Of a DNA stretch of 64,000 bases, positions 7,800 to 28,297 are shown piece after piece. The stretch spans positions 57,742-121,741 of the forward strand of contig JAGWWA010000001.1 in the NCBI GenBank assembly GCA_018970605.1, written 5' to 3'. This DNA is from Planctomycetota bacterium (GTDB lineage Bacteria > Planctomycetota > Planctomycetia > Pirellulales > UBA1268). A program made the position numbers and the translations under genes. The notes beneath the pieces are model-generated. The model did not search any database. It saw only the letters and a program-made list of their open reading frames with translations, and had not been told where the DNA came from. Every line of letters starts with the position of its first letter. Positions within the stretch are counted from its first letter, which is position 1.

Positions 7800-7845
7800 C
7801 ACGTCGGCTTCTCCTGCGGCGGATGGCCGCGTAGACTCCGTCCCC

Positions 7846-8971
<1,126 letters not shown>

Positions 8972-9042
8972 CCTTGCTGGACTGCCCGGCGGCGGCGGGC
9001 TACATTCGTCCCTGTCCCCCCGCTGGTCCACCAAGGAAATCC

Positions 9043-9264
9043 ATGGCCGAGAAAGAACAGGCTCTCGAGGTCGAGGGCGTCGTCACGCAGGCCCTCGCCA
9101 ACACCCGGTTCCGGGTCCAGATCGCGGGCGGACATATCGTCAACGCCCACGTCGCCGGCCGCATGCGGAAGAACTTCATCCGCATCGTGCCTGGAGACAA
9201 GGTGAAGGTTGAACTCTCCCCCTACGACCTCACCAAGGGTCGGATCACGTTCCGCGAACGGTAG
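9043..9264 (+). CDS. infA: translation initiation factor IF-1
   Basis: 73 aa. [64 protein letters not shown] is near-canonical IF-1. Confidence 0.95.
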
Positions 9265-9293
9265 GATTCCCGGCGCCACCAGGCGCGGGGCCT

Positions 9294-11810
9294 TCACGAC
9301 GCGGCCGGTTCTTCGCCGTCGTTCTTCTTCTCGAGGAACTGCATGAGGTCGCTGAACGTGCGGAGCGGTTCTTTCCCCTCGCGCATCTCCTTGGAGATCT
9401 TCGTCGGCGGCGACTTGGGCTTCGCCACATAGACGCGTGGCTCTTGCTGGCGAGGCGGCCGTTCATGCCGCTGGTCCCGGGGCCGCGGAGGCCTGGGGGG
9501 CCGCTCCGTAGGCTGGGCAGCCCGCTGCGGCGGCTGCTCGGCCCGCCGGGCCTTTCGCTCCTTCTGCTCCCGCCGGGCTTCCTCGAGCCGTTGCTGCCGC
9601 TCCCGCTCAGCCGGCGGGATCATCGTCAGCGACACGCGGCGCCTGGCCTTGTCGAGTTCCAGAACCCAGACCGGCACGATCTGCCCGACGCTGACGAAGT
9701 CGTGCGGATCACGCACGTATTGGCTGGAGAGCTGGCTGAGGTGCACCAGTCCGCTGTCGTGGAGACCGATGTCGACGAACGCCCCGAAATCAACCACGTT
9801 GAGAACCGAGCCCATCAGTTCCATGCCCACGGCCAGGTCCTCGAGCTTGAGCACGCCCTTCTTGAAGAACGGCTTGGGGAGGTCCTCGCGGGGATCGCGG
9901 CCCGGCCTTGCCAGCTGTTCCACGATGTCGGCCAGCAGCAGCCGCCCCACGCCCAGCTCGCGGGCGAGCGCGTCGAGATCCACCGAGGCCGCCTTCTCCG
10001 CGAGCGCCTCGGCCTGTGGACGCGACGCCAGATCGGCGACGCTGCCGCCGAGCCGCCCGAGCACCTGCTCCGCGACGGGGTAGCTCTCCGGATGAATCCA
10101 AGTTGAATCGAAGGGATTCGTGCCGCCCGGGATCTTGAGGAACCCCACGGCCTGCACGTAGGCGGCCTCGCCGAAGCCGGGAACCTCCAGGAACTGCTGC
10201 CGCGAGGTGAACGGTCCGTTCTTCGTCCGCCATTCGTGGAAGTTCTTGGCGGTGGTCTGATTGAAGCCCGATACCCGCCGGAGCAGCGCGGGGCTGGCGG
10301 TGTTCACGTCCACGCCGACGTAGTTGACGCAACTCTCGACCACGTTGTCGAGCGAGGCATGGAGATGCCTCGCCTTCACGTCGTGCTGGTAGAGCCCGAC
10401 GCCGATGTTTGCGGGCTCGATCTTCACGAGTTCCGACAGCGGATCCTGCAGCCGGCGGCCGATCGAGATCGCCCCGCGGATCGAAGCCTCGTGGCCCGGC
10501 AGTTCCTCGCGGCCGAATGGGCTCGTCGAATAGACGCTCGCGCCGGCCTCGTTCACGATCGCATAGCCGACGTCGAGATCCTTGAGATCACCCGCCACCA
10601 GATCGGCGACCAGATTTTCGGTCTCCCGAGCCGCGGCCCCGTTGCCGATGGCGATCACCGTGCAGGCATGGTTGCGCACCAGTTCCGCCACCTTCGCCGC
10701 CGCCGCCGACCGCTTCTCCTGCTTGCCGACGACGTGCAGCACGGCGTGATCCAGCGGCGTGCCGCACTCGTCGATCACGGCCGCCTTGCAGCCGCTCTTG
10801 AAACCGGGGTCGAGGGCCAGCACACGGCGCCCCGGCACGGGCGACTGGAGCAGGAGGTTGCGGAGGTTTCGGGCAAACACGTGCACCGCATGCGACTCGC
10901 AGACGTCCGTCATTTCCCGGCGGATTTCCCGCTCGAGGCTCGGCAGAATCAGCCGCGCCAGGGCATCGCGGGCACAGGCCTTGAGCACCTCGCCGTGCGG
11001 ATGCCCCGCAGGCACGAGCAGCTCTTCAGCCACCGCCTGCATCTCATCGGCCGGCCCGTCGATCCGGACCTTCAGGAGCCTCGCCCGCTCGCCCCGATTG
11101 ATCGCCAGGAGCCGATGAGGCGGTACTCGCTGGATGTGCTCGCCGTAGTCGAAATAGTCGCGGTAGTGCTTCTCCTCCTTGGAGAGCGCCTTGCCCTCGC
11201 TCTCCACCCGCTGGCTCTTGAGGTGGGCTGAGCGGTAGAGGATCTCGCGGAGCCGCTGCCTGAGGTCGGCCCGCTCGCTGAACTCGTGGGCGATGATGTG
11301 CCCCACACCGAGGAGCACATCGGCGACGGTGGCCACCTGGGCGTCGGCATCGACGAAATCGGCTGCTCGGAGGTCGAGATTCGCGGCCGCGGGGTCTGCG
11401 GCGAGGATCTCCCGGGCGAGCGGCTCGAGTTTCCGCTGCCGCGCCACCTCGGCGAGGGAGAGTTTCCGAGGCTTGAAGGGCAGGTAGAGGTCCTCGAGTT
11501 TCTTGGTGCTGTCCGCAGCGGCAATCCGCGACTCGAGCGCGGGGGTGAGCCGCCCCTGCCCCTGGATCGTCCGCAGGATCGTCTGCTTGCGGTCGGCGAG
11601 TTGCCTCGCCCGCGCGACAGCCTCGGCGATCAGGCGGATCTGCTGCTCGTCCAGACCGCCGGTCTGATCGCGGCGATACCTGGTGATGAAGGGGACCGTA
11701 TTGCCGGCGTCGAGCAACTCGACCGTCGACTGCACCGCCGCCACGGGGAGCCCGAGCCGTTGGGCAATCAGGCCCAGATCGATGACAGCAGTGATCGCCG
11801 TGGATCCCAT
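9294..11810 (-). CDS. tex: Tex-like transcription accessory protein (S1 RNA-binding domain) with a basic/Pro-rich C-terminal tail
   Basis: IAQRLGLPVAAVQSTVELLDAGNTVPFITRYRRDQTGGLDE N-terminus, YqgF-like and HhH regions, and an S1 domain (GMELMGSVLNVVDFGAFVDIG). The ATG at 11810 is preferred to 11912. Confidence 0.9.
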   Translation of the reverse strand: MGSTAITAVIDLGLIAQRLGLPVAAVQSTVELLDAGNTVPFITRYRRDQTGGLDEQQIRLIAEAVARARQLADRKQTILRTIQGQGRLTPALESRIAAADSTKKLEDLYLPFKPRKLSLAEVARQRKLEPLAREILAADPAAANLDLRAADFVDADAQVATVADVLLGVGHIIAHEFSERADLRQRLREILYRSAHLKSQRVESEGKALSKEEKHYRDYFDYGEHIQRVPPHRLLAINRGERARLLKVRIDGPADEMQAVAEELLVPAGHPHGEVLKACARDALARLILPSLEREIRREMTDVCESHAVHVFARNLRNLLLQSPVPGRRVLALDPGFKSGCKAAVIDECGTPLDHAVLHVVGKQEKRSAAAAKVAELVRNHACTVIAIGNGAAARETENLVADLVAGDLKDLDVGYAIVNEAGASVYSTSPFGREELPGHEASIRGAISIGRRLQDPLSELVKIEPANIGVGLYQHDVKARHLHASLDNVVESCVNYVGVDVNTASPALLRRVSGFNQTTAKNFHEWRTKNGPFTSRQQFLEVPGFGEAAYVQAVGFLKIPGGTNPFDSTWIHPESYPVAEQVLGRLGGSVADLASRPQAEALAEKAASVDLDALARELGVGRLLLADIVEQLARPGRDPREDLPKPFFKKGVLKLEDLAVGMELMGSVLNVVDFGAFVDIGLHDSGLVHLSQLSSQYVRDPHDFVSVGQIVPVWVLELDKARRRVSLTMIPPAERERQQRLEEARREQKERKARRAEQPPQRAAQPTERPPRPPRPRDQRHERPPRQQEPRVYVAKPKSPPTKISKEMREGKEPLRTFSDLMQFLEKKNDGEEPAAS

Positions 11811-13554: not shown

Positions 13555-13645
13555 CAGGAAGCGTGACGCCGTCAGGCGTACGGCGAAATCAACGCCGATC
13601 TCCACACCGGGCAGGCCCCCATCGCTCACGCGATTGGGCTTCCTG
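13555..13645 (+). repeat. 91-bp intergenic repeat, family C, copy 1
   Basis: Reverse complement matches 15057-15147, with about 14 mismatches in 91 by eye. The termini caggaagc ... gcttcctg form an 8-bp terminal inverted repeat. Confidence 0.7.
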
Positions 13646-13798: not shown

Positions 13799-14938
13799 TC
13801 AGTCCAGCCAGTCGGCTTCGGCGATGCGCTCGGGCGTGTAGGTCTCGGTCACATAGCTGATGTCCTTCGAGATCAACGACTCGACTTCCAGCTTGAAGCC
13901 GTTGTCGAGCATGGTCTCGATCTCCTTCTGCCATGCCTTCTTGCCGGCAAACCAGGGGTAGGCGGCAATCTGCTTGGCCCGCTTGATGTCGGTGTCGTTG
14001 AGCTGGATCTGCACGCTCTGGCTGAGCTTGCACCGCTGGTAATCGCGTGAGCGGATGCCGAGGAAGCGGGCTTCGGGAATCGCCATGCGCTTCGACTCGT
14101 AGGCAAGATTGATCGAGCCCTGCTTGAGCACCGAGTAGATGTAGTAGCCCCAGGGATCGTTGTCGAGCAGGCAGTAGACCGGCAGCTTGAGCTCGTTGTG
14201 GAGCCGGTAGAGCATCCGTCGGACGCCCCGGGGCGGCTGGCCGCCGCCGTGCGTCAGCAGGCAGTTGTGCTTCCGCCAGAACTTGTCCTCGTTGAAACGC
14301 CGCCAGACCGTGTCCTTCTCGACGTGGAGGATGAACTTCGCGTCGCACGACTTGAACTTCACGATGTCGGCCTCGACGATCGACGGGATCGAGTAGCCGC
14401 CGGAGCCCATCCGGGAGCAGTCGATTTCGTCGCCCGAGTCGATCAGCGTGATCGGGCCGACCATGCCGCCGCGGTTGCTGGCGTAGACGTGGAGCTCCTC
14501 GCGGAGGCTCTCGAGCGTCACCTCGAGGTCTTCGATGATCGGGTCGCACTCCTCCTGGGTGGCAAATGTCTCCTCGCGCGTGCCCTCGATCGTGTGCTTG
14601 AGAAGGTAGTAGAGACCTCGGATGCTGGTGGTCTTCTGCTGGTCGATGAGCTGTTTGCAGCCGGTGGCCACCAGCAGCGTCTGCATGTAGCTCTTGGCCT
14701 GCGAGAGGTTGAAGAGTTGGCGGCGGTTGGTCTGGCCCCCCATCTCGATGATCTTCCGCGACTTGTTGAAGCGGACGTTCGAGAGGCTGCGCGTGGGAAT
14801 GTCGAGGTGCGGATCGCGCTTCTTCTCGGCGGCGGAGGCCACCTCGTCGGCGAGATCGACGATCAGCCGGAGCGTCTTCTGATCGATGACGGGCAGTTTG
14901 CCGGCAGCCTTCGGTGGGCGTTTCGACTTCGTGGCCAT
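13799..14938 (-). CDS. top6A: DNA topoisomerase VI subunit A / Spo11-like protein (5Y-CAP plus Toprim)
   Basis: IRGLYYLLKH (catalytic Tyr context RxxYY), ILHVEKDTVW (Toprim Glu), CLLDNDPWGYYIYSVLKQGS (DxD), GFKLEVESL C-terminal motif. ATG at 14938 (MATKSKRPPK). Confidence 0.85.
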   Translation of the reverse strand: MATKSKRPPKAAGKLPVIDQKTLRLIVDLADEVASAAEKKRDPHLDIPTRSLSNVRFNKSRKIIEMGGQTNRRQLFNLSQAKSYMQTLLVATGCKQLIDQQKTTSIRGLYYLLKHTIEGTREETFATQEECDPIIEDLEVTLESLREELHVYASNRGGMVGPITLIDSGDEIDCSRMGSGGYSIPSIVEADIVKFKSCDAKFILHVEKDTVWRRFNEDKFWRKHNCLLTHGGGQPPRGVRRMLYRLHNELKLPVYCLLDNDPWGYYIYSVLKQGSINLAYESKRMAIPEARFLGIRSRDYQRCKLSQSVQIQLNDTDIKRAKQIAAYPWFAGKKAWQKEIETMLDNGFKLEVESLISKDISYVTETYTPERIAEADWLD

Positions 14939-15056
14939 GTCGGATGCAATGAGGGCGGAGGAAGGAGCGAACAACGCCCGGAATCCTACCTGCAATCCCG
15001 GCGCCTCGCACACCGGCCGAAATCCATGCTCTCGTGCCCCGGAGACGCTTCCTACC

Positions 15057-15147
15057 CAGGAAGCCCAATCGCGTGAGCGATGGGGGCCGGACTGCCGAGG
15101 AGATCAACGCCGATTCTGCCGTACGCCTTACGGCGTTACGCTTCCTG
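15057..15147 (-). repeat. 91-bp intergenic repeat, family C, copy 2 (inverted relative to copy 1)
   Basis: caggaagcccaatcgcgtgagcgatgggggcc ... ccgtacgccttacggcgttacgcttcctg. It is preceded by the small hairpin gcttcct-accc-aggaagc. Confidence 0.7.
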
Positions 15148-15186
15148 CAGCTGTGCCGAATCGCTTCCCCGGAGGCGCTTCCTGCT

Positions 15187-15218
15187 CAGGAAGCCCAGCC
15201 GCGTGAGCGATGGGGGCC
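15187..15218 (-). repeat. partial third copy of the family C arm
   Basis: caggaagcccagccgcgtgagcgatgggggcc repeats 15057-15088 and abuts the stop codon of the upstream gene (15219-15221). Confidence 0.6.
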
Positions 15219-16076
15219 CTACGCCTCTTCGCGGAGCATCGCGGGCGGCTCGTCGAGTTCCTCGAGTTCCGGCGGGAGCTGGAGCTGCCGCATCGTCTCG
15301 TCCGTCTTCCGCATGCCCTCGGCCACTTCGTCCACCCGCTGGGCGATGTCGGTGACGTCGCGCTTGGCCACGGAACTCTCCGCCAGGGCGGCGATCTTGG
15401 CCTCCAGCCGCTCGATCTCGGCGGCCACGAGGTCGAGCTTCCGCCGCGCCTCGTCGATGTTGTCGAGCCGTTCGCGACTCGTCTTGAGATGGTCTTCGAG
15501 GGTGCCCCGCATCGCCGCCGACCCTGGGTCGTCCTTCGGCATCTTCGCCAGCCGTCGCTCCAGATCGGCGATTCGCGCCCGGATCGCGCCGTCGTCGGTC
15601 CGGTCGAGGAAGTCGGAGAGCGTGTTGGCGCCCCAGATCATCCGCAGGTAGCCCCAGAGCAGACGATCGAGCGACTCGAGCGCCGTCTTGTCGGGTCCGC
15701 TCCCATCCGGCCCGCGGATGCTGCCCCCGAGTTCCACGAGCTTGAGGCAATGATCGCGGAGCTGGTCGAATCGCTTCAGCAGGGCCGGCGGAAGGTTCTT
15801 GCGGATTCGCTCATAGGCTTCGCGGGCTCCCGCCGCCTCCGTCGCCCGGCGAGACTTCGCGTCCTGCGCCTCGACGGCACTGCGGAAGCGGTCGTTGGCG
15901 AGCATGCTGGCGAGATAATACACCTCGCCGGCCGCCACCAGCGGCAGGATGATCCCGGGAAAGCCGCTGATGAAGGCCGCCGCCACGCCGCCGCCGAAGA
16001 GGAGCAGATTCCACCTCGTGGTGAATGCGGTCTTCAGGTAGGCACCGACGCGACTGAACACGATCACCTCGCTCAC
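15219..16076 (-). CDS. hypothetical membrane protein: two N-terminal TM helices plus a long coiled-coil region
   Basis: The GTG start overlaps the ABC ATPase stop (GTGA). Hydrophobic stretches WNLLLFGGGVAAAFI and GFPGIILPLVAAGEVYYLASML. The C-terminal heptad-like RKLDLVAAEIERLEAKIAALAESS. No family recognised. Confidence 0.6.
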   Translation of the reverse strand: MSEVIVFSRVGAYLKTAFTTRWNLLLFGGGVAAAFISGFPGIILPLVAAGEVYYLASMLANDRFRSAVEAQDAKSRRATEAAGAREAYERIRKNLPPALLKRFDQLRDHCLKLVELGGSIRGPDGSGPDKTALESLDRLLWGYLRMIWGANTLSDFLDRTDDGAIRARIADLERRLAKMPKDDPGSAAMRGTLEDHLKTSRERLDNIDEARRKLDLVAAEIERLEAKIAALAESSVAKRDVTDIAQRVDEVAEGMRKTDETMRQLQLPPELEELDEPPAMLREEA

Positions 16077-16954
16077 GTGGGCCGCTTGGCGGCCGCCTCG
16101 ACCTGCTCGATCCGGGCGTGCAGGGCGTTGACCTGCTCGTGAAACCACGGCTCCGATTGCACCTCGCGGGCGGGCGCCGAGGCCGCCGGCATCCGGATCT
16201 CGTCCACGATCCTGCCCGGCGTCGTCGCCATCACGAACACGCGATCTCCAAGATACACCGCCTCCTCGACCGAGTGGGTCACGAAGAGCACCGTCGCCTC
16301 GACCTCCCGCCAGAGCTTCACCAGCAGGTCCTGCATGTCGAGGCGGGTCGCCGGATCGAGGGCCCCGAAAGGCTCGTCCATGAGGATCACCCGGGGCCGG
16401 AGGATCAGCGTGCGGGCGATCGCCACCCGCTGCCGCATGCCGCCCGAGAGCTCGTGCGGATACTTCGCGGCGTCCCGCCGCGGATCGAGCCCCACCTTCG
16501 CGATCCACTCGAGCCCCTCGGCCTCGCGCTCCCGCCGGGCAACTCCGCGGCACTCGAGACCGAAGACCACGTTGTCGAGCACGGTGCGGTTGTCGAAGCT
16601 CGTGTAGTCCTGAAACACCATCCCGCGGTCGGCTCCGGGACCGACCACCGGCCGGCCGAGCACCGTCACCCTGCCGCTCGTCGGCGGATGCTGCGGCTCG
16701 AGCCCGGCCACGAGCCTGAGCACCGTGCTCTTGCCGCAGCCGCTCGGCCCCAGAAACGACGAGATCTCGCCATGATCCACGATGTCGGGAATCGTGAAGC
16801 TCACGGACGAGATCGCCACGTATTCCCTGGGCGAGCCCTCGCCGTAGATCTTGGTGACATGGCGAAACTCCACCGCAGGCGGGCGTTCGGGTGCGGGCGG
16901 GGCAGCGGGGGCCGGCGTCGCAGCGGGGGGCGTGTCGGGGGTGGCGTCGCTCAT
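16073..16954 (-). CDS. ABC transporter ATP-binding protein (NitT/TauT nitrate/sulfonate/bicarbonate-type)
   Basis: Walker A GPSGCGKST, Q-loop, signature LSGGMRQRVAIAR, Walker B ILMDEPFGALD, H-loop VTHS. The ATG overlaps the permease stop (ATGA). Confidence 0.9.
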   Translation of the reverse strand: MSDATPDTPPAATPAPAAPPAPERPPAVEFRHVTKIYGEGSPREYVAISSVSFTIPDIVDHGEISSFLGPSGCGKSTVLRLVAGLEPQHPPTSGRVTVLGRPVVGPGADRGMVFQDYTSFDNRTVLDNVVFGLECRGVARREREAEGLEWIAKVGLDPRRDAAKYPHELSGGMRQRVAIARTLILRPRVILMDEPFGALDPATRLDMQDLLVKLWREVEATVLFVTHSVEEAVYLGDRVFVMATTPGRIVDEIRMPAASAPAREVQSEPWFHEQVNALHARIEQVEAAAKRPT

Positions 16955-17910
16955 ACGGCCTCCGTCGATGCCGCCGCGCCGTGGAGCAGCGATCCGACGA
17001 ATCGGGGGAGCAGCCCGCGGCCGCCATACCGATGCGGAAACAGGTCGCACTGCAGCCACCAGAGGGCCCGGTCGATCGCGTAGGCGACCAACGGGATCAC
17101 CACGAGCACGATCAGGATCGGCTCCCGCTCGCCGCGGCGCTGCGAGACGTTGATCAAGTCTCCGAGGCCACCGGTGTCGCCTCCGAGTTTCACCACCTCC
17201 GCGAGCATCACGTAGCCGAAGGCGATGCCGAACAGCAGCCGCAGCGAATTGAAGATCGCCGGCGCCGCCAGCGGCACCAGCACCTTGAGGATGATCTGGA
17301 GCCGCGAGGCCCCGAGTGTGAGCGCCGTATCGACGTACCGCTGCGGCACCTCCAGCACCGCTGCCGTGGTGTCGCTGACGACGAAGGCGACGCTGGCGAT
17401 GAACAGAAACATCATCTTCTGAAACTCGCCGATCCCGAAGAAGAAGAACGTCAGCGGAATGAGCGCCGCCACCGGGATGTTGCGGCCGAAGATCGTCAGC
17501 GGGGCGATGAAGGACCGCACCGCCGGAAAGCAGGCGGCCAAGACGCCCAGCGGCACGCCCACCAGCCCGCTGAGGCCGAATCCCAGGCAGACCCGCCGCA
17601 ACGTCACCAGCGTGTTGGCGACGAGCCGCCGCTCGCCGAACGTCGTCTGCAGGGCGGCCAGCGTCTCGGCCGGGCTCGGCAGCGTGGCAGGACTGATCAG
17701 CCGCGTCTCAGGACCGCTCATCTCCGCTTCGGGTCCGACGCCCGGCCGCATGCCGTCCGCCGTACCCACGAACCAGAGGGCCAGCACGCACGCCACGCAG
17801 GTCACGCCCCAAAACAGACCCGTGGCCGCGGGCACCTCGCCCCGCAGCGGCTTGGCGGGCTCCGCGGTCGGAGGAACCGGCTGCGGCGAGGGTGCCGGTG
17901 CGGTGGTCAT
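16951..17910 (-). CDS. ABC transporter permease (binding-protein-dependent transport, NitT/TauT-type)
   Basis: Multiple TM helices and an EAA-like loop: DTALTLGASRLQIILKVLVPLAAPAIFNSLR. Confidence 0.9.
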   Translation of the reverse strand: MTTAPAPSPQPVPPTAEPAKPLRGEVPAATGLFWGVTCVACVLALWFVGTADGMRPGVGPEAEMSGPETRLISPATLPSPAETLAALQTTFGERRLVANTLVTLRRVCLGFGLSGLVGVPLGVLAACFPAVRSFIAPLTIFGRNIPVAALIPLTFFFFGIGEFQKMMFLFIASVAFVVSDTTAAVLEVPQRYVDTALTLGASRLQIILKVLVPLAAPAIFNSLRLLFGIAFGYVMLAEVVKLGGDTGGLGDLINVSQRRGEREPILIVLVVIPLVAYAIDRALWWLQCDLFPHRYGGRGLLPRFVGSLLHGAAASTEAV

Positions 17911-19685
17911 TCCTTTTCCGCGGCGTAGACCTTGATCTCCACGCGTCGATTGAGCGCGTGGTTGTCGGGATGGTCGTCGTCGGCCGGCCGATCCCAGCCG
18001 AGGCCGTCCACGGCAAACCGGTTGTCGTCGAAATCGAACTTGTCCACGAGGGCGTCCTTCACCGCCCGGGCCCGCTCGAGCGAGAGCTCCTTCACCATCG
18101 CGGCCGGCACCGCGCCCCGCATCGACGAGTCGGTGTGCCCCTCCACCACGATCCGGGCGTTGCCGAACTGCTTGGCGAGCGCCCCTGCCTCATCGAGCAC
18201 GAGATCAACCCGGGCGTCGTACGGCTCCTCCACATCCTTGCCTTCGATCCGCCGCGTCACCTTCTTCCGCAGTTCGGCGCTGTTGGGGAAAAAGTGGATC
18301 ACGATCGTGTTGGTGAGGATCTCCTCGTTTTCGGCGCGGATCTGCTGCACCGTCTTGGGCGGGAGCGACAGGGCATACTCGTCCTTCGTCTCGGCGTACT
18401 TCGGCTCCTTGCCGAGCTTCTGGATCACCGAGAAATCCATCACCTGGTCGAACGGCACCGGGTTGTTGGAAATCACCCCGATCCGCCGGTAGAGCATGTA
18501 GGCCTGCTTCCAGATCCGCTCGAAGTTCGCCGGGTTGTTGCGATTCAGGAAGAACTGGTAGTTCTCCGCCCAGTTGGTGCTGTGGGCGTCGCCCAGCATC
18601 GAGAGCGCGTCGGCGGCGGGGATCGTGTAACCGTCGGCCATCAGCTGGGCCACCTCCTGGCGGGCGGTCTCCGACTTGAGTTCGCCCATCGCGTCGAAGA
18701 TGCCCCGCGCGATCGCCTCGATCTTGTCGGGGTGGTCCTTGGCGAAGTCGGCGCGGGCGAACCAGATGTCGGCGATCAGCCGATTGGCGGTCTGGGTGGT
18801 GACCAGCATCCGGTTGCCCTTCGCGTCGGCGAGGTTGTAGATGTCGGGCGCCCACGACACACAGCCGGCGATGCTCTTGTCGCGGTTGAACGCGGCCGCA
18901 GCCTCGAAGGCGGTGCTCGTGAACACCATCTCCACGTCCTGCGGCTGCAGGCCGCCGGCGACGAGCATGTTGAGGGCGAAGAACTGGCTCGGCGAGTTCT
19001 GGGCGAGCACGAGCTTCTTGCCGGCAAGATCCCTCACGGTCTTGACCGTGTCGCGGACGACGATGCCGTCGCCGCCGTTGGAGAAGTCCACCTGCTGGTA
19101 GACCCGGGGCATGATCCGCGAGTCCTTGGCGAAGCTGTCCACGAACAGCGGGAGCATGTCGAGCGTGGCCCAGCCGATGTGCACCTCGCCGGCGGCGTAG
19201 GCGTCGCGCATCTGCACGGGGTCATCGATCAGCACCAGCTCCACCTTGAAGGGCTTGCCCCCCGGTGCCTGCCAGAGCTTGCCGGCCTTGAAGCCATTGT
19301 TGGCCCGGATGATCGGCGCCCAGCCCGCCCACACGTTGAGCGCAAACTTCACCGTCTCATCCTCGAGCGGCTTGTAGCCGCTCACGCCCTTCACGGGCGG
19401 CAGTTTTTCAGCCGGCTTGAAGGTGTATTCCTTGACGGTCGTGGGCACCGACACGTCCGGCGCCTCCGTCATCCCTTCGGCACCGCCGGATCCTTCGGCT
19501 CCACCTCCCGTGCCAGCACCTGCCGGACCGCCGCCCCCGGCTGCCATGGGCCGCTGACCTGCGGCGCCCGGGCGACCGAGGCCAAACTGCTCGAGCATGC
19601 CGGACCGCCAGGCCGCAAGGCCGACGAGACCGAAGATCACGGCCCACACCGCGAGCCAGAAAGGAGCCTTGGGTTGACTGGACAT
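17907..19685 (-). CDS. ABC substrate-binding protein (NMT1/THI5-like) with an N-terminal membrane anchor and a C-terminal OmpA-like peptidoglycan-binding domain
   Basis: N-terminal TM FWLAVWAVIFGLVGLAAW followed by a Gly-rich linker. SBP core FALNVWAGWAPIIRANNGF ... LVLAQNSPSQFFAL. C-terminus IVVEGHTDSS ... LSLERARAVKDAL ... GLGWDRP ... NRRVEIKV is an OmpA_C/MotB motif set. Confidence 0.8.
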   Translation of the reverse strand: MSSQPKAPFWLAVWAVIFGLVGLAAWRSGMLEQFGLGRPGAAGQRPMAAGGGGPAGAGTGGGAEGSGGAEGMTEAPDVSVPTTVKEYTFKPAEKLPPVKGVSGYKPLEDETVKFALNVWAGWAPIIRANNGFKAGKLWQAPGGKPFKVELVLIDDPVQMRDAYAAGEVHIGWATLDMLPLFVDSFAKDSRIMPRVYQQVDFSNGGDGIVVRDTVKTVRDLAGKKLVLAQNSPSQFFALNMLVAGGLQPQDVEMVFTSTAFEAAAAFNRDKSIAGCVSWAPDIYNLADAKGNRMLVTTQTANRLIADIWFARADFAKDHPDKIEAIARGIFDAMGELKSETARQEVAQLMADGYTIPAADALSMLGDAHSTNWAENYQFFLNRNNPANFERIWKQAYMLYRRIGVISNNPVPFDQVMDFSVIQKLGKEPKYAETKDEYALSLPPKTVQQIRAENEEILTNTIVIHFFPNSAELRKKVTRRIEGKDVEEPYDARVDLVLDEAGALAKQFGNARIVVEGHTDSSMRGAVPAAMVKELSLERARAVKDALVDKFDFDDNRFAVDGLGWDRPADDDHPDNHALNRRVEIKVYAAEKE

Positions 19686-19736: not shown

Positions 19737-20030
19737 TCAGCCGCGGAACTTCGTCTTCGCGCGGGCATGACCCGCCATGTGCAGTGCCTGCATGAGGTCG
19801 TAGGACGTCACCTCGCAGAGCAGCCGAGTCACCTTCTCATGGGCCTCGGGCGAGAGGAGCGGCTCGACCTCCTTCATCAGCGCCACCACCCGCTTCTCCT
19901 GCTCGTCGAGTTCGCGGGTCTCGATCCGGGCGTCAGCCACCGCGTCGAGGAAGGAGTCGAGCTTGCGGGCATACTCAGCGATCAAGGGCGTGTCGGTCGA
20001 GTCGTCGAACCAGGGGGTCTTGGCTGCCAT
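19737..20030 (-). CDS. hypothetical small acidic helical protein (97 aa)
   Basis: GAGGAG lies 8 nt upstream of the ATG. Codon usage looks coding. No family recognised. Confidence 0.6.
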   Translation of the reverse strand: MAAKTPWFDDSTDTPLIAEYARKLDSFLDAVADARIETRELDEQEKRVVALMKEVEPLLSPEAHEKVTRLLCEVTSYDLMQALHMAGHARAKTKFRG

Positions 20031-20088: not shown

Positions 20089-21957
20089 TCAGGAACCGAT
20101 CACCTCGCGGATGGCCGCGAGCCGCTCCTGCAGGTGGGACCGACCGCCCGGCTGGCCCACCTTCTCCTTCCAGCGTTCGGGGAGGAATCGCTTCTCGGTG
20201 CATTCGAGCACCGCCGCGATCTCCTGCATCTCCTTCTCGAGCCCCTGGGCGCTCGGCATGAAATCGTCGAGGGCCGCCTTCAGGTCTGCGGCGGAGATGG
20301 TGTCGGGCGTCGGCAACCCGGCATCGGCAGCCCGCTCCAGGCCTTTCCTGCGGGCGGCCAGCACGACGCTCTCGATGTCGGCGCCGGAGAGACCGAGGTC
20401 GAGATCGATCGGCCCGGGCAGGCCTGCAGCGAGCTTGACGTGCGACTTCCTTGCCATCGCCGCGAACATCGCGTCCATCTCGGCCTGGTCGTGCGGATAG
20501 AAGAGGGGAATGTGCACCTCGGCGCGGCCCTGCCGCTTGAGGTCGATCGGCAGCAGGTCGGGGCGGCTCGTGAGCAGCATCCAGACGATCTTGCCGCGAT
20601 ACCTGGTGTCGCCCATCTGGCGGGCGATCATCGAAAACACCCGGGCGCTCGTGCCGGAGTCTCCGTCGCTCTGGCGGTTGCCGAGCGCGGCGTCGGCCTC
20701 GTCGATCACGACCACGACCGGCCCAAGACTGCGGAGCACGCCCAGGGCATGCTCGAGGTTGCCCTCCGTCTCTCCCACGTACTTGCTGCGGAAGTTCTTC
20801 AGCACCACGCAGGGAATCCCCACGCTGCCCGCGTAGCATTCGGCGATGAAGCTCTTGCCCGTGCCCACCGGTCCGCAGATCAGGTAGCCCATCGGGGCGC
20901 TCTCGAACTGCCCTCGCTTGATCGCCCGGGCGTCGGCCTGGAGTCGCTGCTTGGCATCCACGTGCCCCGCCACGGCGTCGAGCGTGAGCCGCGGTTGGAT
21001 GAACTCGATCAGCCCATGGCACGACCGCTCGATGAGGTCCTTCTTCCGGGCAGCGAACTCGGGCCCGTTGGGATCACTGCCCTCGCGGGCGGACAGGGTG
21101 ATCACGGCACGGAGGCTCTCGAGCGTCAGTCCGCCCGAGACGGCGGCCACCTGCTTCACGCCCTCCATCTGCTCAGGCTTCACGCCCGCGGCCGCCGCTG
21201 TGGCCAGGGCAAACCGCTCACGATCGCCCGCGTCGGGCATCGGCACCTCGATCGCGGTGATCGCGGGATTCTGCACGAGCCGAGGATGCACCTCCGAGAT
21301 CGTGTCGGCGAGCAGCACCACCGCCACGTTCACGCGACGCAGCAGCGGGTTGGTCGCCCAGCCGAGCACCCGCACAAGCCGGCTGGCGGCACTTCGCGAT
21401 CCGGCCTCGCCATCGGGCACCAGATACTGGGCGTAGTCGAGCACGACCGCAATCCGCTTCCGTTGCTCGGGCGGGTCGATCAGGTTGCGTTCCAGGATCG
21501 CATCGATGGCGGCCACGGCCTGATCGGGGTCGCGGGGCCAGGTGGCGGCGTTGCCGATCCGCTCGGTAAGCCACTGGGCCATCGTCCGCAGACGGTTCGG
21601 GTCGGGGCCGGCGAGCGGCCTCAGCCCCTTGCCGACGTCATAGGCCAGCACGATGTCCCAGCGGCCGAACATTTCCCGGGCCAGAAAATCGGAAACCGTC
21701 CCCCAGGCAGCCGCATCGGCTGCCTGACCGTTCGCATTCGGCGCCGCGACCGGCACGAGGTCGCGGACGTTGCCGTGCATCAAGAAGACGCAGCTCGTTC
21801 CGGAGAGATACGAGTCGCCGAGCCGCTCGGCCCATGCCGGACACCAGTCGGGCAGCGATCGCGAGCCGCCCGACGCGGCCGACGTACCGAGCGACGTCGA
21901 TGCCTCGGCCACCGGCGGGCGCGGTGATGAATCAGTGGGCGTGGCAGGGCTGGTCAC
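20089..21957 (-). CDS. AAA+ ATPase, classic clade (spastin/Vps4/Cdc48-like active C-terminal module) with a degenerate N-terminal AAA-like half
   Basis: Walker A GPVGTGKS, SKYVGETEGNLEHAL, Walker B VVVIDEAD, SRH-like LLTSRPDLLPIDLKRQGRAEVHIPLFYP. The N-terminal half lacks a P-loop (VFLMHGNVRD, VVLDYAQYL). GTG start with GGGAG 6 nt upstream. Confidence 0.85.
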   Translation of the reverse strand: MTSPATPTDSSPRPPVAEASTSLGTSAASGGSRSLPDWCPAWAERLGDSYLSGTSCVFLMHGNVRDLVPVAAPNANGQAADAAAWGTVSDFLAREMFGRWDIVLAYDVGKGLRPLAGPDPNRLRTMAQWLTERIGNAATWPRDPDQAVAAIDAILERNLIDPPEQRKRIAVVLDYAQYLVPDGEAGSRSAASRLVRVLGWATNPLLRRVNVAVVLLADTISEVHPRLVQNPAITAIEVPMPDAGDRERFALATAAAAGVKPEQMEGVKQVAAVSGGLTLESLRAVITLSAREGSDPNGPEFAARKKDLIERSCHGLIEFIQPRLTLDAVAGHVDAKQRLQADARAIKRGQFESAPMGYLICGPVGTGKSFIAECYAGSVGIPCVVLKNFRSKYVGETEGNLEHALGVLRSLGPVVVVIDEADAALGNRQSDGDSGTSARVFSMIARQMGDTRYRGKIVWMLLTSRPDLLPIDLKRQGRAEVHIPLFYPHDQAEMDAMFAAMARKSHVKLAAGLPGPIDLDLGLSGADIESVVLAARRKGLERAADAGLPTPDTISAADLKAALDDFMPSAQGLEKEMQEIAAVLECTEKRFLPERWKEKVGQPGGRSHLQERLAAIREVIGS

Positions 21958-21984: not shown

Positions 21985-22734
21985 TCAGGTGGTCTTCTGC
22001 GTCGCCCGCTCGGAGCCGAGTTCCTTGTCGTCGGCCTTCACGCCGGCGGTTTCGGGCGTGACCATGCCCATCGAGATTTCAAACTCGCGAAGCGCGTTGT
22101 CGGCCATCGCCTTCTCGACCGCCTCTTCCTGCTTGATCTGCTCGAGCCCCTCGCCGGACAGGTCGGCCGCGACGCGGACCTTGGCTCGATTGAGGCCGAT
22201 CTTGTCTTGGATCACGTCCTCGATCTGGCCGAAGTCGGTGGTGATGTCGAAGTTGAAGCTGGTGGCGAGCTTGGCGAGTTCCGCCTCCGCCCGCGAAAGC
22301 TTCAGTTCGGCGTCGTACTTCTGGATCTTCTGCTTGAGGTCCGCCAGTTTCTTGGTGGCATGCTGGATCTTGGTGACATTGTTGGTGTAGGCGGTCTCGT
22401 GGAGTTTGAGTTGGGCCTCGTTCTCGGCAAGCTCCTTCTTCGCCTTTTGAAGCTCGAGGGCGAACTTCGAGGCCGTCTCCCGCTCACCGACCTGAAGGTA
22501 GGCCTTGATGCGGGCCTCGAGCGCCGCCACATGCTGGCGGTCGCCGTTCACCTGCCGGGTCACCCGCTCGACGAGGGCCCGGTACTGCTCGAGACCTTCG
22601 CGTCCCTCCTTCATCTGATCGACGGCCTTGTCGTACTCGTACTGGAGCTGCGCGATCGGGTCGGCCGTCCAGAAGAAGTTGGCGATCTTGTTCATCTGGG
22701 CCGCGAGGGACTTCCAGAGTTTGCCGAGAATCAT
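21985..22734 (-). CDS. PspA/IM30 family protein (ESCRT-III superfamily fold)
   Basis: MILGKLWKSLAAQMNKIANFFWTADPIAQLQYEYDKAVDQMKEGREGLEQYRALVERV is a typical PspA/Vipp1 N-terminal helix followed by long coiled coils. ATG at 22734, 249 aa. Confidence 0.85.
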   Translation of the reverse strand: MILGKLWKSLAAQMNKIANFFWTADPIAQLQYEYDKAVDQMKEGREGLEQYRALVERVTRQVNGDRQHVAALEARIKAYLQVGERETASKFALELQKAKKELAENEAQLKLHETAYTNNVTKIQHATKKLADLKQKIQKYDAELKLSRAEAELAKLATSFNFDITTDFGQIEDVIQDKIGLNRAKVRVAADLSGEGLEQIKQEEAVEKAMADNALREFEISMGMVTPETAGVKADDKELGSERATQKTT

Positions 22735-22807: not shown

Positions 22808-22836
22808 TTGATACCGCTGCCGGGGGACGCCGTCAA
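22808..22836 (-). promoter_or_regulatory. candidate sigma70-type promoter for the PspA-AAA+ cluster
   Basis: On the minus strand it reads TTGACG - 17 nt - TATCAA. The -35 element overlaps the stop codon of the upstream giant gene. Confidence 0.4.
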
Positions 22837-25800
22837 TCGGCCCGTCGATTCCGACGGCGGCTGATCACGAGGCCCGCCGCCGTCGTCACCAGCGTTCCGA
22901 CCATCAGCTGTGCCGACGGCTCGGGCACGGCGGCCACCTCCTCCCCGAGACCTGGGGGCGCGTTGTACGGCCCCGCATCGAAGAGCCCGGTGGAAAGGAA
23001 GTCGGCCGCGTCGAGGATGTCCACCAGACCGTCGTACCCGAAGTCGCCCTCGATCCAGGAAGCCGGCTGTCCGCTGTCAAACTTTCCTCCGGCGAGGAAG
23101 TTGGCGGCGTCGAGGATGTCGACGTTCCAATCGAGGTTGGTGTCGCCCGCGGCGGCGAAGGCGAAGGTCACCGATCCGTCGCCGTTGTCGAGCCAGCCGA
23201 CGGTTCGCGGAATGCTCTGGGCAATGTCGGTGGCAGCCTGGCTCGACGTGATCCCGCTCGTGCCGCTCCATGAGCCGTCGCCGCGTCCGGCAACCAGCGC
23301 CGTCAGCATGTCGACCGTCGATAGCCCCGCGGACACGGTCATCAGTCCACTGCCGACATCGGTCATGCCACCCGCATTGGGCTTCAGCCCGCCGACCGTC
23401 GTCTGCAGGCCCGCCGCCAACGCGAGCGTGCCGCCGGCGAGGGGCACGATGCTGCTCGAGCCGAGCGCGGAGCCGTTCGCCAGTTGGAGCACGCCACCCC
23501 GCACGGTCGTGCTGCCGCTGAGCGAGTTGGCCGCTGCCAGCACCATCCGGCCGGCGCCGGTCTTGCGGAAGCCGTTGGTGCCTCCGATCCAGCCCGAGAC
23601 GACGAGATCGTCGCTGGCCGTACCATCGGCCACGTCCACGGCGAAGCCGTCGGTGCCGAACCGCACGTCCTGCGCCGTGATCCGCGACGTGGTCGCCCCG
23701 CCGGCGACCGAGAGCGCATTGCCCGATCCCGAGAACACATAACTCCCGTAGGTGGCGCTCGCGGCGCCGCTGGCGAGCGTGCCGCCGGCGAGGGTCACGT
23801 TGGTGGCGTGGGTCGTCACATTGTCGGCGGTCGTAAGAACGCCCCCGGCCTCGATCACGTAGGGCCGGGTACCGTCGGCGTAGCCGTGGAGCGCATTGTC
23901 GGCCGCGACGACGATGGTGCCGCCCGCCGTCGCCCGCACCACGCCCGATGTGCCCGCGACTGTGCCGAACTGCGACTGCGCGACCGCCAGTTCCAGCGTC
24001 CCCGACGCCACCGTCAGGTCGCCGGCAAGATCGCTCGTGCCCGTCAGCCGCAGCGTGCCGGCGGACCGCTTCGTCACCCAGAGCCCGCCGGTGAGACTCC
24101 CTGAGTAGGCATTGCTGCTCCCCGACGGGATCGCCAGTGTCAGCATCGCCGAACCGCTCGTGGAGGTGATGCGGCTGTACGACGTCGCCCCGGTGAGGTT
24201 GTTGGTCACGCCGGCGAGTTGCTGGTCGAATCCATTCAGGTCGAGGATCGCCGTCGTGTTTCCGTTGCCGGTGTCGCCAATCCGCATCGTGGCGCCGATC
24301 GGGATCACGTTGGCCCTCCCCAGCCGCACGGTGCCGGCCGTCAATCGCAGCTCGTCGTAGCTGCTGCCGGAACCCGACAGCACGACGATGCCGTCGCGCA
24401 CCGTCACGAATCGATCGGCGGGGAGCGCCGCCGTGTGCGCGATCGGGCCCGCGATCTCCAGCGTGCCGCCCGAACTGGCGCTGAAGTGACCGCCTGCCTG
24501 CACCGAACCGCTGATCGTGATCGGCCCGGTCACCGTGGCCGTGCCGCTCGAAATCGCCGCCTGCACGGCCCCGACGCCAACCGCACCACCCCCCCGGATC
24601 GTGATCGGGGTGGCGACCGACACGCCTGCCGCATCCAGCGTGAACTGGTTTCCCGTGCCCTCGTAGATCGTGAGCGACGACGTGGATGGGACGGCCGCCG
24701 AGGTCGTCACCGCCAGTCGGCCGCCGAGCACCGTGATCGGACCGGTGAACGAGTTGGAGGCGGACAACGTCAGCTTCGCAGACCCGGCCTTCGTGAGCGA
24801 TACGGCCGCCGACCCGTTGTCGCCGATGCCGGCGGCGATCGTCAGGCCGCCGGAGTTCGCCTGGTTCACGAGCAGTTCGGCCGCCTTCGTACCATCGCCG
24901 GCGGTGAGGCCCACCACGTCGGTGAATCCGCTGATCGTCACCGCCGCCGCCGTGGCCGAGGCGATCGAAAGCAGGCCGCCGCTGCTGAGAGTCAGCTTGC
25001 TGGAGCCAAGATCGAGCGTCTGGCCGGCCGCGTTGGCCGCGATCCGCAGGCTGTTGGTGGTCAGCGGCGCAAGCATCGTCTCGCTCGTGCTCGTCTCCGT
25101 GTTGTTCGTGTCACTGCCGCCGAAGATGTTGAGCAGGCCGTAGCTCAGCGCGTCGAGCCCGGTCAGCCCGCCGGGATTCGTGCCGTCGCCTCCCGAGACC
25201 GCCCAGGTCGTACCCCCTACGGTCAGCCAGGGCCCCACGATTCCATTCGTGTTCGCCGTCGTCGTCGTGACCTGGCCGGACGAGGGCACGGTGAGCGTGG
25301 CGACCGATGGCCCGGTTCGAGTCAGGCCGCCCAGATTGAGCGTCATGCTGCCGGCGGAGCCGCTCGCTGCCACGATCGTCGAGACGCCCGGCAACACGCT
25401 GGTGGTGGCGAAGGTCTGCGTGTTCGACTTGCTCGCGCCCCCCGCCGCCCGCACGCCACCGCCGCCGAGCCGCAGCGCTGCCGTCGGAACCACGATGTCG
25501 TCGTTGACCGCGGATGTCCCGAAATCGAGGGTCACGGTTCCCTGAGACACGGCCACCGCACCAACCGTCGTCAGGTTCGACAGCGCGAGTGTGCCCGACC
25601 CGACCTTCGTGATCGATGCCGCAGTGAGTTGGCCGGCGTACGCGGTCGAACTGCCGCTCCGGCCCACGGAGAGATCGTTCGTGCCGGCGTTGAGGTCGCG
25701 GGATCCCTTGAGCCCGCCGAGCACATAGGCCCCGGTTCCGGTGGCCGTGAACCCGAGACCGCCGGTGTCGCCGGCGGCGAGATTCACCACCGAGTTTTGC

Positions 25801-28145: not shown

Positions 28146-28251
28146 GAAAGCCTCCCGGCTCGCGAGCGACGCGGCCACGCGGCATGTCGCTCGATGCCGC
28201 CGCGTCCACCGCTCAAACCCCCCGGAGAATACGGGTCGCCATCGAAAGGGA

Positions 28252-28293
28252 GTATTAGCCACCCGGCTAATCCCCGTCGTCACGATGGGCCTG
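28252..28293 (-). promoter_or_regulatory. conserved upstream block containing the 16-bp palindrome TTAGCC-N4-GGCTAA (28255-28270)
   Basis: The minus strand reads caggcccatcgtgacgacggggaTTAGCCgggtGGCTAAtac. The same block occurs at 36149-36188. Exactly 109 nt separate the palindrome from the ATG at 28145. Confidence 0.5.
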
Positions 28294-28297
28294 CACA

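Follow-up and report, generated by a model that had tools for sequence, protein, structure and literature searches.

Comparative genomics has placed the gene for the membrane-repair protein PspA beside genes for a transporter whose binding protein carries an OmpA domain. Ravi et al. (2024; mSystems 9:e00847-23; PMC11237479) described in silico an operon type with PspA, a fusion labelled PBP+OmpA, a permease, an ATP-binding cassette (ABC) ATPase, a transmembrane (TM) protein that bears a 'divergent Snf7' domain, and an AAA+ protein. In Candidatus Handelsmanbacteria (OGG56892.1) the order given is PspA, PBPB+OmpA, permease, ABC ATPase, TM+Snf7 and AAA+AAA; in Archangium it is PspA, PBPB and TM+Snf7. 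These authors suggested that the OmpA domain binds peptidoglycan, that the PBP binds the transported solute, and that membrane remodelling is linked to transport. PspA is a membrane-repair protein of the ESCRT-III superfamily, and according to a 2025 review (PMC7619361) a Vps4-like ATPase 'appears absent in bacteria'. Here we analyze a locus of this kind on the minus strand of a 64,000-nucleotide (nt) stretch of DNA from a bacterium of the Planctomycetota (contig JAGWWA010000001.1); this whole stretch is called the window below.

The operon type is already known, from comparative genomics only, and the window holds a planctomycete member of it. What is new is how common and how stable the seven-gene form is among Planctomycetota, a component of 97 amino acids (aa), the modularity of the receptor, the analysis of its ligand pocket, and the finding that the Snf7 call could not be reproduced with Pfam, hhalign or Foldseek. 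Whether the seven genes form a PspA system for membrane maintenance that spans the envelope and is coupled to a wall-tethered importer is, in our judgement, evenly balanced between yes and no, and we hold the details of such a system with less confidence than its outline.

Results

A conserved cluster of seven genes

Four consecutive minus-strand genes at 15219-19685 encode a receptor in which a solute-binding protein (SBP) is fused to an OmpA-like domain (592 aa, 17907-19685), an ABC permease (319 aa, 16951-17910), an ABC ATPase (293 aa, 16073-16954) and an all-helical protein with a hairpin of two TM helices and a cytoplasmic part (the 2TM protein, 285 aa, 15219-16076). All the sequence facts recorded in the initial annotation of this region were located again, on the minus strand. 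That annotation took the four genes as the functional unit, a boundary that proved too narrow: the transporter belongs to a conserved seven-gene cluster, whose other members, also on the minus strand, encode a PspA/IM30-family protein (21985-22734), an AAA+ ATPase (20089-21957) and a conserved acidic protein of 97 aa (19737-20030). The G+C content of the window is 66-73%, and its nearest relatives are metagenome-assembled genomes (MAGs) of freshwater Pirellulales and other Planctomycetota.

At least 519 stretches of GTDB species genomes encode a relative of the receptor. The window proteins were searched by tblastn in the best 80 of these loci, as ranked with a 10-sequence alignment query, and the counts are limited to loci with enough flanking sequence. 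All 80 are near the planctomycete type, so that what we say of spread beyond it rests on nine single look-ups. The permease, ATPase and 2TM genes lie downstream of the receptor gene in 50/51 evaluable loci, and the PspA/IM30, AAA+ and 97-aa genes lie upstream of it in 45/51; all seven genes are present in 34 of the 39 loci where this could be evaluated, and order and strand are as in the window at 45 loci. The coiled-coil gene, whose link with the transporter had been raised when only the four genes had been seen, follows the ATPase gene in 50 of the 51 loci. The PspA orthologues are 60-92% identical and stand upstream of the transporter in 45/51 loci, and where the PspA module is present, the 97-aa gene almost always sits between those for the AAA+ protein and the receptor. 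Across the loci, the lowest identities to the window put the receptor at ∼60%, the AAA+ protein at ∼50%, the 97-aa protein at 40-55% and the 2TM protein at ∼35%.

The order is not rigid. In one locus (L073) the AAA+ and 97-aa genes lie downstream, after the 2TM gene. In another (L084, 4203-8599), a metagenome contig of 48% G+C with a 35%-identical relative, the order is PspA, receptor, AAA+, and the AAA+ gene is orthologous, with 535 bits to the AAA+ profile. We conclude that: i) the receptor is the common denominator of these loci, and the 2TM gene travels with the ABC genes, and ii) the PspA, AAA+ and 97-aa genes are a second module, which is attached usually, but not always.

Overlaps of 4 nt had been reported at each of the three junctions between the four transporter genes. 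The ATGA overlaps at 17907-17910 (receptor/permease) and 16951-16954 (permease/ATPase) are legible in the sequence, but the GTGA overlap at 16073-16076 (ATPase/2TM gene) hinges on the start codon chosen. Public gene callers start the 2TM protein five codons later, at the GTG at 16061 (280 aa), which has a GAGG 6-9 nt upstream; because the start varies with the caller, the third overlap is possible, not certain. At other loci the intergenic gaps range from 0 to 470 nt, and overlaps are kept only among close relatives. The translational coupling proposed earlier therefore holds as a local trait of the window, but it is not conserved.

The receptor is a fusion, probably membrane-anchored, of a TauA-like protein and an OmpA-like domain

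The architecture first read from the translation, with a Gly-rich linker after an N-terminal hydrophobic segment, an NMT1/THI5-type core and a C-terminal OmpA_C domain, was recovered by profile search and by structure prediction. Pfam assigns the OmpA family to residues 497-576 (3.1e-10, 40.7 bits, cut-off 27.2), above its gathering score, and the binding core scores above the cut-offs of NMT1 (30.2 bits, cut-off 20.5) and NMT1_2 (28.5 bits, cut-off 24.7; residues 107-349). Against PDB sequences, the receptor matches E. coli TauA (2.9e-11) and the C-terminal domain of Acinetobacter baumannii OmpA (1.2e-10). A profile built from an alignment of 43 diverse full-length relatives, which also serves for all receptor conservation counts below, finds TauA at 1.6e-23 and Omp38 (3TD3) at 8.5e-31 among solved structures, and it matches the OmpA-like domains of Omp38, OprF, YiaD, YfiB, MotB/PomB, Pal and TssL at 1e-31 to 1e-15.

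An AlphaFold2 (AF2) model made with the 43-sequence alignment has a mean predicted local distance difference test score (pLDDT) of 90.2 and a predicted TM-score (pTM) of 0.83. It shows an N-terminal hydrophobic helix at residues 7-27 (19605-19667), a disordered Gly-rich stretch at residues 39-68 (pLDDT <50), and a well-predicted body from residue ∼75 to 587. Within this body, the two-lobed NMT1/TauA-type core spans about residues 105-435 (18381-19373) and the OmpA_C-like domain about residues 455-587 (17925-18323). The segment between them (∼435-475) is also well predicted, and the two domains therefore do not look like beads on a string. In Foldseek, the model matches E. coli TauA best (6SSY; E 2.8e-17), with a TM-score of 0.78 when normalised to TauA; SsuA, CmpA, NrtA and ThiY-type proteins come next, and TauA, SsuA, CmpA and NrtA lie at E 1e-17 to 1e-10.

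The peptidoglycan contact pair of A. baumannii OmpA, seen in structures 3TD3-3TD5, is the Asp of GHTD together with the Arg of LSxxRA, which bind diaminopimelate. Receptor residues D519 and R538 align with this pair, and they are conserved in 42/43 and 43/43 members of the family, respectively. The OmpA-like domain of the receptor is thus a predicted peptidoglycan binder. At the other end of the protein, a hydrophobic segment is present in 43/43 aligned members, and a lipobox Cys and a conserved AxA motif are absent. The N-terminal helix reads as a signal-anchor, and a cleaved signal peptide is less likely. Ravi et al. (PMC11237479) label this segment 'SIG'. A receptor tethered between the cytoplasmic membrane and the wall, possibly as part of an envelope-spanning assembly, had been put forward in the initial annotation; the idea is consistent with all our findings, and Ravi et al. 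proposed it independently.

The gene set of an importer is complete. The permease matches Pfam BPD_transp_1 at 3.5e-17, and its best NCBIfam matches (SaoP, TauC and NtrB) all fall below their cut-offs. The ATPase matches ABC_tran at 6.5e-27; in NCBIfam it comes closest to the taurine ATP-binding subunit (1.9e-61, under the cut-off), and its Walker A (GPSGCGKST), signature (LSGGMRQR), Walker B (ILMDEPF) and H-loop (VTHS) motifs, read from the translation, are intact. Receptor, permease and ATPase are predicted to make up a type I ABC importer of the NitT/TauT family, with an NMT1/TauA-like binding protein.

The ligand pocket

In TauA, Gln30 and main-chain amides (Gly61, Gly79 and Thr132) hold the sulfonate, and Glu106, Thr132 and Asp205 the ethylamine; the E106A substitution abolishes taurine binding (Qu et al. 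2019; PMC6906117). We placed these contacts on the receptor by an HMMER alignment in which the chain number plus 21 gives the number used in that paper, an offset that we deduced and that fits E106, T132, W176 and D205. The two carboxylates that bind the ethylamine have counterparts in D206 (Glu106; kept in 42/43) and D306 (Asp205; 37/43), and Trp176, a ligand contact in the MES complex, corresponds to W278 (39/43). On the sulfonate side, Gly79 is replaced by D176 (42/43), and Thr132, which contacts both ends of taurine, by P232 (43/43). Gln30 and Gly61 lie outside the aligned stretch; by eye, Gln30 probably corresponds to W119. The pocket columns conserved in the family are W119, D176, D200, S202, D206, P232, W278, D306 and F378, and D200, S202, W119 and F378, together with W172, count among further near-invariant residues.

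By this alignment, which has low identity, the amine-binding half of the TauA site appears to be kept, and the anion-binding half to have turned acidic and aromatic; we accordingly rejected a retained sulfonate site on the strength of the Gly79 to Asp176 and Thr132 to Pro232 changes. The ligand would be a small molecule with at least one amino or cationic group, for example a diamine, a polyamine or an amino alcohol, rather than a sulfonate or a phosphate. The earlier view that the substrate could not be inferred from the sequence was in this respect too pessimistic, although the amine-bearing ligand is itself deduced from aligned TauA contacts. Because conservation of the pocket extends over the entire fusion family, one and the same ligand is probably bound in every genomic context.

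Two named transporters were considered and set aside. A TauABC taurine equivalog is contradicted by NCBIfam scores of 47.7 bits (cut-off 490) and 37.6 bits (cut-off 304) with the TauA models, 88 (342) with TauC and 208 (357) with TauB. A PstS-type phosphate binder found no PstS or PBP_like_2 match in Pfam or in the 25 best of 27 NCBIfam matches. The binding-protein profiles that the receptor did match were NMT1, NMT1_2 and, below threshold, Phosphonate-bd. Several relatives bear the NCBI name 'phosphate ABC transporter substrate-binding/OmpA family protein', and the word 'phosphate' in it is probably wrong.

PspA, the AAA+ ATPase and the 97-aa protein

The PspA/IM30-family protein scores 44.5 bits with Pfam PspA_IM30 (1.9e-11, cut-off 33.9). 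Its open frame extends to a TTG at 22836, and the family consensus start, MIxGKxWRAL, corresponds to the ATG at 22734, which gives 249 aa.

The AAA+ ATPase (622 aa; Pfam AAA 5e-21, residues 359-484) has one active classical AAA domain (∼350-560) behind an N-terminal region of ∼340 residues. Walker A (GPVGTGKS), Walker B (VVVIDEAD), the pore loop (KYVGE) and the second region of homology can all be read from the translation. The closest solved relatives are Afg2/SPATA5, p97/VCP, Cdc48 and VAT (1.8e-32 and weaker), and the NCBIfam model of CdvC, which is Vps4-like, matches at 3.7e-10, well short of the cut-off. There was no detectable MIT domain. The N-terminal half has no P-loop or Walker A (it reads HGNVRD), and its hhalign match to the C-terminal half is insignificant (probability 0.2), yet in Walker-B register; this match is the one sign of a degenerate AAA domain in this half.

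The 97-aa protein has orthologues (n = 23) that are 39-79% identical, with F27, D33, E40, E45, E56, L59, T68, L70, L71, E73 and M80 invariant and a conserved C-terminal RPKTxF(R/Q)G. Searches of Pfam (with 23 members), NCBIfam, PADLOC and PDB sequences (with a profile) gave no family. Its ADGxVDxxE motif had been considered as a TerB or EF-hand motif, for which the family searches gave no support.

The 2TM protein

The fourth gene of the transporter had been described as encoding a 285-aa protein with two TM helices and of no known family, and so it remains: Pfam and NCBIfam yield no family, and the AF2 model (66 sequences, mean pLDDT 71.8) consists of helices only, two of them hydrophobic and N-terminal, with a 55-residue helix in the cytoplasmic part. 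The family profile finds 3130 proteins, none of which has a Pfam domain; the JGI names of relatives (CheA, SbcC, Zn-ribbon) are coiled-coil noise. Basic residues flank both ends of the hairpin, so that both termini would be cytoplasmic. The hydrophobic helices contain residues that do not vary among relatives 34-96% identical: W22 and N23 belong to the first helix, A49 and E51 to the second. A conserved Glu embedded in the membrane is unusual in a mere anchor, and E51 hints at a helix-helix contact or a protonatable site.

The lone hhalign match between the PspA and 2TM families is insignificant and covers 13 columns of the C-terminal tails (ALRxFEVxMGLV versus TMNELQFxTGL). It could reflect a short docking motif shared by PspA and 2TM orthologues such as that at L040:11678-12547, or chance. 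The 2TM clade of the window reads LQLPPELE at this position, so the tail motif is not universal.

Spread of the receptor fusion

A word-indexed search with the receptor returned 5688 proteins at E<=0.001, and the best 120 of them all have OmpA and NMT1-type Pfam domains. In an exhaustive search of 50%-identity representatives, 249 clusters matched at E<=1e-30, and by hand count at least 41 of the best 150 clusters are full length, with one match stretch over both domains and 28-65% identity. A literature search for the fused architecture by name gave nothing relevant. It had been asked whether the fusion might prove common and already characterised with a known substrate: it is common, has an NCBI product name and appears in the literature, but no characterised substrate was found for it.

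Seven GTDB records that carry this Pirellulales-type cluster (L016, L018, L027, L029, L046, L050 and L073) are titled Candidatus Kuenenia, Chitinophaga, Deltaproteobacteria or Acidobacteriota, and their receptors have identities of 61-77%. The titles probably stem from mislabelled MAGs or from contigs binned wrongly, not from real spread, and we therefore claim no spread beyond Planctomycetota from them.

Huge phages encode a distant branch of the fusion of TM helix, NMT1 and OmpA. Forty phage records match, 19 of them over at least 80% of the query, and they include ∼545-kb Lak megaphages and one 735-kb phage. In Prevotella phage Lak-B5 (L090; MK250024.1, locus positions 5851-10688) and in the uncultured 735-kb phage (L091; LR756501.1, 5968-9662) genes for an ABC permease and an ATPase come after the fusion gene (Pfam NMT1_2 and OmpA). 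An open reading frame (ORF) of ∼353-355 aa precedes the fusion gene; its Pfam matches are coiled-coil only in Lak-B5, and it has none in the 735-kb phage. The same cassette of fusion and ABC genes recurs, among phage-like neighbours, in L081 and L089, two metagenome loci of low GC.

Flanking sequences

A hairpin-containing repeat, of undefined strand, is present in two copies at 15057-15218, immediately behind the 2TM stop codon. The first copy (15057-15147) forms a 91-nt inverted repeat, 85% complementary, with 13555-13645, and a third, partial copy (15167-15218) abuts the stop codon. The 30-mer core of the repeat has only 3 sites in the 64-kb window, where 0 are expected by chance, and every copy holds the hairpin GCTTCCTGnnCAGGAAGC. 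The repeats 3′ of the 2TM gene are possibly a terminator or a boundary element. No canonical T-tract terminator was found at the repeats downstream of the 2TM gene, and a promoter and terminator scan gave nothing above shuffled expectation. For riboswitches and leader RNAs, there was no Rfam match at the gathering threshold in the window and none at E<=1 in the cluster.

The inverted repeat brackets a gene for a topoisomerase VI subunit A/Spo11-like protein (13799-15013, minus strand; Pfam TOP6A-Spo11_Toprim 3.8e-59, TP6A_N and Topo_VI_alpha), directly downstream of the cluster and syntenic solely in close relatives (receptor identity of at least 72%). Immediately upstream of PspA lies a 1876-aa ORF (22833-28463, minus strand) rich in Gly/Thr/Ser/Ala repeats, whose C-terminus, with VPEPS, a hydrophobic stretch and RRRNRR in the translation, looks like a PEP-CTERM sorting signal.

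Discussion

A working model

If the seven genes act as one system, the receptor would be anchored in the inner membrane by its N-terminal helix and clamped to peptidoglycan by its OmpA-like domain, and receptor and ABC importer would thereby be fixed where the inner membrane is within reach of the wall. The receptor would bind a small amine-bearing or cationic solute and deliver it to the type I NitT/TauT-family importer. The gene most tightly linked to the transporter is that of the 2TM protein, which we propose as the PspA adaptor: a membrane hairpin at the cytoplasmic face that would recruit or nucleate the PspA polymer at the importer site. The Cdc48/Afg2-like AAA+ ATPase, with its intact pore loop, could remodel or disassemble the PspA polymer, as Vps4 acts on ESCRT-III, and the 97-aa protein may be an adaptor or regulator of this ATPase. 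In this way, uptake of a solute and contact with the wall would be coupled to an ATP-driven stabilisation or repair of the membrane. The domain identities, the intact motifs, the conserved peptidoglycan-contact residues and the gene linkage are observations; the protein-protein contacts and the direction of information flow are what we infer from them. In favour of a coupled system, the linkage persists at low identity and survives rearrangement, as in L073, L084 and Handelsmanbacteria.

Several points weigh against it. We found no experimental work on any member of the cluster type in the literature. Even when clamped to peptidoglycan, the receptor would have to reach its permease. The proposed adaptor could not be related to PspA or to Snf7: no member of a set of 25 diverse relatives matched Pfam Snf7 or PspA_IM30 at E<=5; hhalign against the co-encoded PspA family gave a probability of 0.1 with shallow alignments (effective number of sequences, Neff, ∼3); and Foldseek of the 2TM model (pLDDT 72) against the PDB returned generic coiled coils, the best at E 0.058. 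Neither ABC permease and ATPase genes nor a 2TM gene lie within 8 kb of the L084 receptor gene, so that the receptor may act with PspA and the AAA+ protein outside transport. About 12% of the loci (L037, L039, L043, L068 and L079) have the four transporter genes and no PspA, AAA+ or 97-aa gene within 8 kb, with unrelated genes upstream of the transporter in those inspected, and the more distant fusion proteins, at 25-45% identity, are found by themselves or accompanied by nothing but ABC genes; a transporter that lacks the PspA module is therefore possible. The ligand is deduced from an HMMER alignment of 19% identity, not from model coordinates. Finally, no promoter, terminator or riboswitch that would delimit the transcription units was found in the scans described above.

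Alternative explanations

The alternatives were judged separately, each for itself, and they overlap with the model of a PspA system coupled to a wall-tethered importer. The first concerns the 2TM protein, which could be a membrane-anchored divergent Snf7/ESCRT-III protein, so that the cluster would hold two ESCRT-III-type polymers (PspA and TM-Snf7) and one AAA+ ATPase. The position of the gene, the TM segment and the helical architecture match the 'SIG+TM+Snf7' protein of OGG56892.1, and the cytoplasmic part is all-helical with a 55-residue helix. The homology searches gave this assignment no support. Besides the absence of Pfam Snf7 and PspA_IM30 matches in all 25 members and the hhalign result with PspA, a profile search of PDB sequences returned generic coiled coils only, the sole ESCRT-III entry in the Foldseek list is CdvB2 (9s98; rank 50, E 1.2, TM-score ∼0.2), and the helix lengths have no obvious fit to the α1-α5 pattern of ESCRT-III. 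The published 'divergent Snf7' label is thus unconfirmed, and we regard a second ESCRT-III polymer as possible but rather unlikely.

Another explanation is a plain nutrient importer, that is, self-contained NitT/TauT uptake in which anchoring stops the receptor from diffusing off in the large planctomycete periplasm; the 2TM protein would be an accessory or regulator of the transporter, and the PspA and AAA+ genes merely inherited neighbours. The transporter gene set is complete with all motifs intact, the 2TM gene is linked to it in 50/51 loci as against 45/51 for PspA, the PspA module is missing beside the four genes in five loci, and distant relatives, including those in huge phages, consist of SBP-OmpA fusion, permease and ATPase with no detectable PspA or AAA+ gene. 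An inherited neighbourhood fits poorly with a PspA/AAA+ linkage that holds at 35-60% protein identity and through the order changes in L073 and Handelsmanbacteria, with the L084 receptor gene that lies between PspA and AAA+ and has no ABC genes nearby, and with the independent finding of the association by Ravi et al. outside Planctomycetota. We consider it doubtful that uptake is all there is, or rather that the neighbours are accidental to it: the chance that this explanation is right seems to us to be about one in four.

It is unlikely, in our estimate, that the assembly is a sensor instead of an importer. Receptor, ABC proteins and hairpin-TM protein would then sense ligand flux or the distance or tension between wall and membrane, the ATPase cycle would trigger PspA assembly, and uptake would be incidental. 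A loose analogy is offered by the flux-sensing Bce-type ABC transporters that feed the cell-envelope stress responses of Firmicutes. The well-predicted SBP and OmpA region on a flexible tether suits such a role, as do the L084 receptor paired with PspA and AAA+ without ABC genes and the invariant E51 within the second hydrophobic helix of the 2TM protein; the very strong conservation of the pocket whatever the context fits one defined, possibly envelope-derived, ligand. Set against this, the importer features are all intact, in the permease (BPD_transp_1) as in the ATPase motifs, the cluster has no conserved regulator or kinase, and no finding separates sensing from transport.

More speculative still, and improbable as it stands, is the idea that receptor, ABC proteins and hairpin-TM protein form a trigger, reaching across the envelope, for an ESCRT-III machine in bacteria: occupancy by the ligand, or a separation of wall and membrane felt by way of the OmpA clamp, would act through the ATPase cycle of the transporter and the hairpin-TM protein on PspA nucleation, and the AAA+ protein, with the 97-aa protein as its adaptor, would carry out disassembly. 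Were this true, the AAA+ protein would be the Vps4-type partner of PspA that, according to PMC7619361, appears absent in bacteria, and the system could govern where the invaginating cytoplasmic membrane of planctomycetes stays attached to the wall. An anti-phage defence system was dismissed, as PADLOC gave weak generic matches only (OmpA/MotB, AAA (IetA) and coiled-coil).

PspA, Vipp1 and their relatives are bacterial ESCRT-III proteins, and the cluster pairs PspA with a classical pore-loop AAA+ protein and a putatively wall-clamped ABC receptor. It is thus a genetically testable candidate for ATP-driven PspA remodelling and for a physical link between wall and membrane repair. The analysis also offers a correction of a widespread 'phosphate' annotation and narrows the likely class of ligand.

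Comparison with known systems

The cluster resembles ESCRT-III with Vps4, PspA with PspF/PspBC and LiaH with LiaI in that the gene for a polymer former of the ESCRT-III superfamily has as neighbours those for an AAA+ ATPase and for a small membrane protein, its possible recruiter. The AAA+ protein of the window is nearer to Cdc48/Afg2/VAT than to Vps4, and it is not a PspF-type sigma-54 activator; the proposed coupling with a wall-tethered ABC importer has no counterpart in the ESCRT-III/Vps4, Psp and Lia systems.

For the binding core of the transporter, the closest solved fold is TauA of E. coli TauABC (6SSY/6ST0; Qu et al. 2019, Biochem J), and TauC and TauB are the best or near-best matches of permease and ATPase. 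The carboxylates Glu106 and Asp205 of TauA are common to the receptor (D206 and D306), whereas the sulfonate positions are changed and the NCBIfam scores lie far below the equivalog cut-offs. TauA is soluble and periplasmic, without TM anchor or OmpA domain, whereas the receptor has both.

With MotB/PomB, TssL/DotU, YiaD and YfiB the receptor shares a single N-terminal membrane helix (or lipid anchor) and a C-terminal OmpA_C domain with the Asp/Arg pair. Unlike them, it carries a full solute-binding protein between the anchor and the OmpA domain. No MotA/ExbB/TolQ-like partner was found among the cluster proteins scanned with Pfam, and no acidic residue is conserved in the receptor's TM helix.

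The operon type of Ravi et al. remains the closest described system. Like the window, it has PspA, a binding domain fused to OmpA, a permease, an ABC ATPase, a helical TM protein after the ATPase, and an AAA+ protein, and it has been read in the way that we propose for the window, with OmpA binding the wall, the binding domain the solute, and the AAA+ protein remodelling PspA. The AAA+ gene lies between the PspA and receptor genes in the window and at the end in their example, and the conserved 97-aa gene of the planctomycete cluster has no equivalent in their architecture string. Two of their labels, Snf7 for the TM protein and an inactive AAA domain for the N-terminal half of the ATPase, could not be reproduced here. 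Their account takes up a paragraph and one row of a table; it describes a single example and states no prevalence, whereas in the sampled planctomycetes the cluster is the rule, with all seven genes in 34/39 loci.

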